Part shown: positions 3,884 to 4,245 of the stretch, one piece after another
Layout of the letters: every line of letters begins with the position of its first letter
How positions within the stretch are numbered: position 1 is the stretch's first letter
Source of the DNA: Escherichia coli
Lineage (GTDB): Bacteria; Pseudomonadota; Gammaproteobacteria; Enterobacterales; Enterobacteriaceae
Strand: one strand, 5' to 3'
DNA length: 64,000 bases
Assembly: GCF_044647545.1 (NCBI RefSeq)
Contig: NZ_CP172818.1
The notes under the pieces: generated by a model
What the model saw: the letters and a program-made list of their open reading frames with translations, nothing else
Told to the model about the DNA's origin: nothing
Database searches by the model: none
Position numbers and translations under genes: made by a program

Positions 3884-3912
3884 GAAAATAATTATCATTA
3901 CAGCAATCATTT
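3884..3912 (+). promoter_or_regulatory. Candidate Fur box (gaaaataattatcattacagcaatcattt) upstream of the TonB-dependent receptor pseudogene
   Basis: Resembles the Fur consensus GATAATGATAATCATTATC; lies in an AT-rich stretch just 5' of a receptor N-terminus; not verified. Confidence 0.3.
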
Positions 3913-4245
3913 GTACTTTGTATTAATGAGGGATGAAATGTTATATAATATACCTTGTCGAATTTATATCCTTTCCACTCTGTCATTATGCATTTCTGGG
4001 ATAGTTTCTACTGCAACCGCAACTTCTTCAGAAACAAAAATCAGCAACGAAGAGACGCTCGTCGTGACCACGAATCGTTCGGCAAGCAACCTTTGGGAAA
4101 GCCCGGCGACTATACAGGTTATTGACCAACAAACATTGCAGAACTCCACCAATGCCTCCATAGCCGATAATTTGCAGGACATCCCCGGAGTAGAGATAAC
4201 AGACAACTCCTTGGCAGGCCGTAAACAAATCCGCATTCGTGGCTG
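3911..4245 (+). pseudogene. yoeA: TonB-dependent outer-membrane receptor, N-terminal fragment (signal peptide, TonB box ETLVVT, start of plug domain), interrupted by IS2
   Basis: Translation ...ATATSSETKISNEETLVVTTNRSASNLWESPATIQVIDQQTL...GRKQIRIRG ends exactly at the IS2 terminus; start codon uncertain (3911, 3926 or 3938). Confidence 0.7.

Follow-up and report, generated by a model that had tools for sequence, protein, structure and literature searches.

The 64,000-nucleotide stretch of Escherichia coli DNA analyzed here (the window) carries, in this order, cobT-cobS-cobU, a 5' fragment of a TonB-dependent receptor gene, the insertion sequence IS2, a second receptor fragment, a GTPase pseudogene (yeeP), IsrC and Ag43. 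This arrangement is the start of the cryptic prophage CP4-44 in K-12, where the receptor is the pseudogene yoeA (b4582, formerly b1995), annotated as a plug-domain protein, and the element inside it is annotated as IS2F, with insC3/insD3. The locus is thus E. coli yoeA, an IS2-disrupted remnant of a TonB-dependent haem receptor gene, and we are confident that the sequence just 5' of this remnant is best explained as the yoeA promoter together with the operator through which Fur represses it. The Fur operator at yoeA is correct but already known, as the K-12 experimental record has treated yoeA as a Fur target since 2007 and every later K-12 Fur regulon map includes it.

Only nucleotides 1-500 of the 2148 in the intact gene survive, split by IS2, with receptor homology ending at 5774, and the window holds neither a complete beta-barrel nor a functional receptor. 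The N-terminal features of such a receptor are present, namely a MLYN...ATATSS leader, the ETLVVTT motif and, on joining the fragments, an IRG...SRVLILIDG plug motif. The first fragment is identical to residues 1-102 of an intact 715-residue protein, and the spliced fragments match that protein to residue 167 except for one I/V substitution at 142. Of 5426 complete E. coli genomes, 2844 contain a 644-bp query from this region (3600-4243) at an identity of at least 95%, and 2095 of these hold most of the query; the annotation of these matches is always a TonB-dependent receptor. In ST131 and CFT073 an uninterrupted 715-residue receptor (WP_000966628.1) occupies the same site beside cobU. Among protein families it matches TIGR01785 (TonB-dependent haem/haemoglobin receptors) best, over its full length at 228.9 bits, which does not reach the curated family cut-off of 316.85, and the only full-length sequence match among PDB structures is the haem receptor PhuR. 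The suggestion in the initial annotation that the disrupted gene fits an iron- or hemin-uptake receptor agrees well with this family match and with the identity that locus order gives the intact orthologue.

In CFT073, the haem receptor gene hma is locus c2482, which opens the island GI-CFT073-cobU; c2475 closes the pks island that comes before it. We find six coding sequences separating clbA from the receptor (two IS3 open reading frames, ldtA, cobT, cobS and cobU), and the receptor is the first complete coding sequence after cobU (42325-44472 in the CFT073 locus, L018). The position of c2482 at the head of its island, the end of pks at c2475 and the six intervening genes together very probably place the CFT073 receptor at c2482, and judging by locus order, size and Tyr126 the intact orthologue is very likely hma. 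The intact receptor has a mass of 79.2 kDa and a tyrosine at position 126, and Hagan and Mobley are said to have described Tyr126 in 2009 as a critical residue. No member name in the protein cluster of the intact receptor says 'Hma', and our literature search did not find yoeA and hma named together. K-12 yoeA appears to be the remnant of Hma, the haem receptor and vaccine antigen of uropathogenic E. coli, and CP4-44 occupies the place of GI-CFT073-cobU. The window shares with CFT073 hma an orthologous promoter, the first 167 codons, the cobU neighbour and the same offset of a Fur binding peak (described below), whereas the CFT073 gene is intact (715 residues, 79 kDa) and functional and the window copy is a split 500-nt remnant.

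The sequence that the initial annotation singled out as resembling a Fur operator is a 29-nt string, gaaaataattatcattacagcaatcattt, located on the plus strand at 3884-3912. The receptor ATG at 3938 lies 26 nt downstream of its end; the position 3940 given earlier is off by two, with the ATG occupying 3938-3940. Scoring with a position weight matrix (PWM) for Fur had been proposed as a check, and we built such a matrix by a de novo palindromic expectation-maximisation motif search of 16 MG1655 Fur-regulated intergenic regions (fepA-fes, fepD-entS, fepB-entC, fhuA, fur, fiu, fhuE, tonB, cirA, exbB, sodA, fecI, fecA, fhuF, bfd and ryhB), with yoeA left out. The matrix converged on the consensus AATGATAATCATTATCATT, worth 17 bits. 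The resemblance was borne out: the best register begins 3 nt to the left of the quoted string, and this core Fur box, AATGAAAATAATTATCATT at 3881-3899, scores 27.1 bits, ranking first of the approximately 64,000 positions in the window, well ahead of a runner-up at 15.5 bits and above the sites of all 16 training promoters (11.6-25.4 bits). As a control for chance, we generated 5000 dinucleotide-preserving shuffles of the local stretch 3740-3938 (28.6% GC), none of which reached 27.1 bits (shuffle maximum, 22.8). The match is therefore far beyond chance even for AT-rich DNA.

The classical Fur consensus 19-mer, GATAATGATAATCATTATC, gives a less striking picture. Against it, 3884-3902 carries five mismatches on the plus strand and four on the minus strand, so that 14-15 of 19 positions agree, and at a threshold of at most three mismatches the whole 64-kb window yields no match, indicating that the classical consensus undersells the site at 3881-3899. 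We dropped that threshold as too strict and replaced it with the data-derived matrix and a calibration of mismatches on known promoters. The best classical-consensus matches in 16 established K-12 Fur promoter regions carry between two and eight mismatches, which makes the four or five at 3884-3902 typical of genuine sites. When up to five mismatches are allowed, four of the eight matches in the window fall within 3846-3902, and three further five-mismatch matches lie elsewhere in the window.

Around the core lie seven weaker Fur sites (4.6-10.8 bits) starting at 3843, 3849, 3869, 3875, 3887, 3893 and 3899, of which those from 3869 to 3899 are spaced by 6 bp and in register with the core. Eight sites above 5 bits are present in 3740-3938, compared with 1.9 in the shuffles (fraction 0.0012). 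The two sigma-70 promoter candidates on the plus strand each have their -10 hexamer (3887-3892 and 3893-3898) inside the core Fur box, and this plus-strand scan agrees with the placement published by Shultzaberger et al. in 2007. The window box resembles the operators of ryhB, sodA, fhuA, fepA-fes, entC, fhuF and cirA, in that all are the same AT-rich palindrome overlapping -10/-35 elements and form clusters of overlapping sites 6 bp apart, but it outscores these classical operators (27.1 versus at most 25.4 bits), although the gene under its control is dead in this lineage. The coordinates of the features at the locus are collected in Table 1.

Table 1. Features of the yoeA locus, in window coordinates.
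Feature	Coordinates	Strand	Description	Basis
FNR site AAAACATGATTAAGGTCAAAAATG	3803..3826		~78 nt upstream of the Fur-box centre	Published chromatin immunoprecipitation-microarray (ChIP-chip) target; sequence present in the window
Fur operator cluster	3843..3917		Weaker overlapping sites around the core	PWM
Core Fur box AATGAAAATAATTATCATT	3881..3899		Palindromic 19-mer; centre 3890, -48 from ATG	PWM, 27.1 bits
Sigma-70 candidate 1	3863..3892	+	TAGATA(3863-3868)-18-AATAAT(3887-3892)	Consensus scan, 9/12 matches
Sigma-70 candidate 2	3870..3898	+	ATGAGA(3870-3875)-17-TATCAT(3893-3898)	Consensus scan, 9/12 matches
Shine-Dalgarno-like GAGGG	3928..3932	+	5 nt before ATG	Read from sequence
Receptor fragment 1	3938..4243	+	Codons 1-102: signal peptide, TonB box ETLVVTT, plug start; equals K-12 yoeA fragment 1	Translation; annotation in MG1655 and W3110
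Open reading frame of this allele	3938..4330	+	102 receptor residues followed by 28 from IS2; stop codon 4328-4330	Translation
IS2	4244..5575	-	1332 bp, inverted relative to receptor	Transposase reading frames on - strand
Receptor fragment 2	5576..5774	+	Nucleotides 302-500 of intact gene, including duplicated GTGGC	Alignment to CFT073 gene
Diverged IS2-like (IS3-family) left-end remnant	5776..5947	+	69% identity to IS2 positions 15-200	

Published work on K-12 and related strains bears directly on this site. Chen et al. (NAR 35:6762, 2007) searched the K-12 genome with a Fur-binding model built on information theory, and among the strong clusters they tabulate, yoeA shares first place with gpmA at 27.4 bits; its 12 walkers span 95 bp, and their centre is 48 nt upstream of the start. 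In gels, 150 nM Fur shifted an oligonucleotide carrying the yoeA site (PMC2189734). The core box and the flanking sites of the window correspond to this published site and cluster. Shultzaberger et al. (NAR 35:771, 2007) reported two Fur sites, of 27.4 and 9.0 bits, that overlap a sigma-70 promoter of 6.4 bits; the -10 element of this promoter is 48 nt upstream of the start codon (PMC1807945). Chromatin immunoprecipitation with exonuclease treatment (ChIP-exo), as compiled by Gao et al. in 2023 with the data of Seo et al., places Fur peaks at yoeA under iron-replete conditions only, at offsets of -70 to -49 in MG1655, -68 to -56 in W3110 and -70 to -58 in CFT073, where the peak sits upstream of the intact receptor gene, and finds a further peak at the same locus in O157:H7 Sakai (PMC10164565). 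These peaks map to approximately 3868-3889 of the window.

Expression follows the same pattern. Upon deletion of fur, transcript from the W3110 locus Y75_RS23850 rises by a log2 fold change of +5.0, or about 32-fold, relative to wild type (PMC10164565, Dataset 4), and we checked that this locus is the 306-bp 5' receptor fragment directly upstream of IS2. The expectation that the promoter of the disrupted allele may still be iron-regulated thus holds for Fur control in W3110. For Sakai and CFT073 the corresponding log2 fold changes are +1.2 and +1.5, respectively (PMC10164565). Beyond these data, yoeA is listed among the known Fur-target operons (PMC4676285), is a member of the Fur-2 iModulon and in O157:H7 is induced together with further iron genes, and the c2482 receptor protein is induced in iron-limited human urine. 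Collectively, what is established, in print or here, comprises the match to the Fur motif, its overlap with promoter-like hexamers, binding of Fur both in vitro and in vivo and, for K-12, Fur-dependent RNA. The site can serve as a positive control, in that a reading of raw sequence picked out the strongest Fur operator of such a genome, and it illustrates that the destruction of a gene need not silence its regulatory region, which can stay fully active long afterwards. Current knowledge gains little from it, and the link between yoeA and hma is the small clarification that may be worth recording.

These data support the following account of the locus. When iron is sufficient, Fe2+-Fur dimers bind the near-perfect 19-bp box at 3881-3899 and probably polymerise outward over the weaker sites across 3843-3917; as the box covers both candidate -10 hexamers, RNA polymerase is excluded and the promoter shut. 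Under iron limitation, and likewise in a fur mutant, the operator is vacated and the promoter fires from a start predicted at about 3899-3906, yielding a transcript that in this allele encodes only the 130-residue fusion of receptor and IS2-read residues. The initial annotation further supposed that the promoter may drive transcription into IS2. Entry is likely, given that the element begins 306 nt after the ATG and that the prediction of intrinsic terminators gives none on the plus strand from 3938 to 5897. Passage beyond it is a different matter: in the W3110 fur deletion strain the fragment on the far side of IS2 (Y75_RS10490) does not respond significantly (log2 fold change -0.2), nor does the yeeP-type pseudogene rise, and we rejected read-through across the whole of IS2 on the unresponsiveness of Y75_RS10490. 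The derepressed transcript thus seems to end inside the element, plausibly because Rho terminates it downstream of the premature stop codon (4328-4330). Since IS2 is inverted, yoeA-derived RNA that enters it would be antisense to the transposase genes insD and insC, and ExcludonFinder (NAR 2025) includes yoeA-insD3 in its 165 MG1655 pairs of convergent, overlapping transcripts.

Several points weigh against this account. The transcription start site is a predicted position, and the published binding and expression data come from MG1655, W3110, Sakai and CFT073, strains other than that of the window. The window shares its C at 3904 with O157:H7, in place of the T of K-12; this difference costs two flanking sites about 4 bits each and leaves the core unchanged. 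The derepression of the intact gene in Sakai and CFT073 is modest (log2 fold change 1.2-1.5), implying that other factors limit the promoter there. With respect to the fate of the transcript, IS2 is multi-copy and published counts cannot show transcription inside it, and the joined yoeA annotation, combined with this multiplicity, could make the yoeA-insD3 excludon call artefactual.

We also considered whether the Fur cluster controls transcription in both directions, as at fepA-fes, with an additional leftward promoter on the minus strand reading into the yoeH/yoeG remnants. The best sigma-70-like match in the region is indeed on the minus strand and within the cluster (TTTTCA(3888-3883)-18-TATAAT(3864-3859), 10/12 matches), and a further ChIP-exo peak of MG1655 is tabulated under yoeH. 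However, promoter-like matches are expected by chance in this region (five found, 2.8 expected), we found no expression data for a leftward transcript, and nothing intact lies to the left, where K-12 has only pseudogenes and CFT073 a pseudogene remnant more than 1 kb upstream. We regard a leftward promoter as improbable, and a bidirectional role would add to Fur control of yoeA rather than replace it.

Less probable still is that Fur binds here as a minor modulator while oxygen or other signals, through FNR and possibly other regulators, chiefly govern the promoter; we consider this very unlikely. An FNR ChIP-chip target, 'yeeH/yoeA', has the predicted site AAAACATGATTAAGGTCAAAAATG at 3803-3826 (PMC1802558), the yoeA transcript level varies with oxygen even in Fur- strains (PMC4676285), and derepression upon fur deletion is only 2.3-2.8-fold in Sakai and CFT073. 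Against a minor role for Fur stand the roughly 32-fold derepression in W3110, the coverage of the -10 region by the Fur box and the induction of the c2482 protein in iron-limited urine. Co-regulation by FNR is likely real, adding to Fur control rather than replacing it. Finally, a non-functional Fur-like match arising as a by-product of AT-rich, horizontally acquired DNA, silenced by H-NS-type proteins, is extremely unlikely: the region is very AT-rich (19-31% GC over 3800-3999), such DNA inflates Fur-like scores and three other five-mismatch consensus matches occur in the window, but we rejected this explanation on the shuffle result, and the published gel shift, ChIP-exo in four strains and derepression upon fur deletion argue against it as well.

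With Fur-repressed transcription of yoeA as the preferred explanation, the remaining new element is a speculative one, a Fur-controlled antisense transcript over one copy of IS2. The strongest Fur-controlled promoter in the genome would run antisense into that copy, such that iron starvation could lower transposase expression or transposition (an accidental excludon), or the cluster could act as a Fur sink; we consider such a role very unlikely. The only hints are the yoeA-insD3 excludon listing and a slight decrease of the reads pooled over IS2 transposase in the W3110 fur deletion strain (log2 fold change -0.31, p = 0.013). IS5 shows a drop similar to that of IS2, and in MG1655 the same deletion gives no drop (+0.06). 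Unlike other excludons, in which the overlap is an evolved arrangement, that of yoeA-insD3 stems from a recent insertion of an IS element.

The element itself is a typical IS2 of the IS3 family, of approximately 1.33 kb, with terminal inverted repeats (TGGATTTGCCCC... and ...GGGGGCTAGTCTA at its ends), transposase reading frames and a 5-bp target duplication, GTGGC, at 4239-4243 and 5576-5580. Its minus strand holds a 301-residue insD-type open reading frame, and the position of insC is taken from the K-12 annotation; identical K-12 loci are labelled as an IS2-family transposase. The right coordinate of the initial annotation, 4245, falls approximately at the IS2 junction where the receptor is cut. 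The same junction is present in 482 of the 5426 complete E. coli genomes, fewer than the 559 that carry the second truncation junction (5774/5775), at which the diverged IS2-like remnant takes the place of the remaining 1648 nt of the receptor.

Comparison among strains indicates that the operator is well kept. The window and K-12 yoeA share the same 19-bp core, its position at -48, the IS2 insertion and the second truncation; the IS5H that lies between cobU and yoeA in MG1655 is missing in the window (at approximately 2656), and the two sequences are about 99.5% identical on either side of that position. The window thus belongs to a K-12-like strain distinct from both MG1655 and W3110. The promoter region of the window is identical to that of O157:H7, and the core box is identical in K-12 and O157. 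CFT073 and ST131 carry A3886T within the core, raising its score to 28.3 bits, so that the sole core change across O157:H7, K-12, ST131 and CFT073 moves the box nearer to the consensus. The CFT073 promoter differs from that of the window in missing the upstream Fur sites at 3843 and 3849.

Several further signals were noted around the locus. The FNR site at 3803-3826 could explain the oxygen-dependent yoeA expression seen in Fur- strains. Upstream of it, at 3693-3731, is an inverted repeat, ccacggaccgcactctt/aagagtgcggtccgtgg, with 17-bp arms by eye, a short loop and a T-run on neither flank, which is kept across strains with one loop change in ST131. This repeat is adjacent to the additional Fur ChIP-exo peak that the MG1655 data assign to yoeH (approximately 3726-3754); a PWM scan found no Fur motif at that peak, about -200 from the start. 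A second Fur ChIP-exo peak, at an offset of approximately -823 (window approximately 3109-3121, 817-829 nt upstream of the ATG), occurs in W3110 under iron-replete conditions and in Sakai and CFT073 under iron starvation, and the PWM detects no Fur motif there (best score, 3.2 bits). A scan of 3000-6600 against Rfam returned no RNA family, while the Rfam small RNA IS102/IsrC lies at 6619-6822, upstream of the Ag43 gene, and contains a weak Fur-like match at 6662-6683 (12.4 bits, five mismatches to the classical box). Transcript of flu is 8.8-fold lower in the MG1655 fur deletion strain and unchanged in that of W3110, a difference for which the phase-variation state of the clones is a likelier cause than control by Fur.
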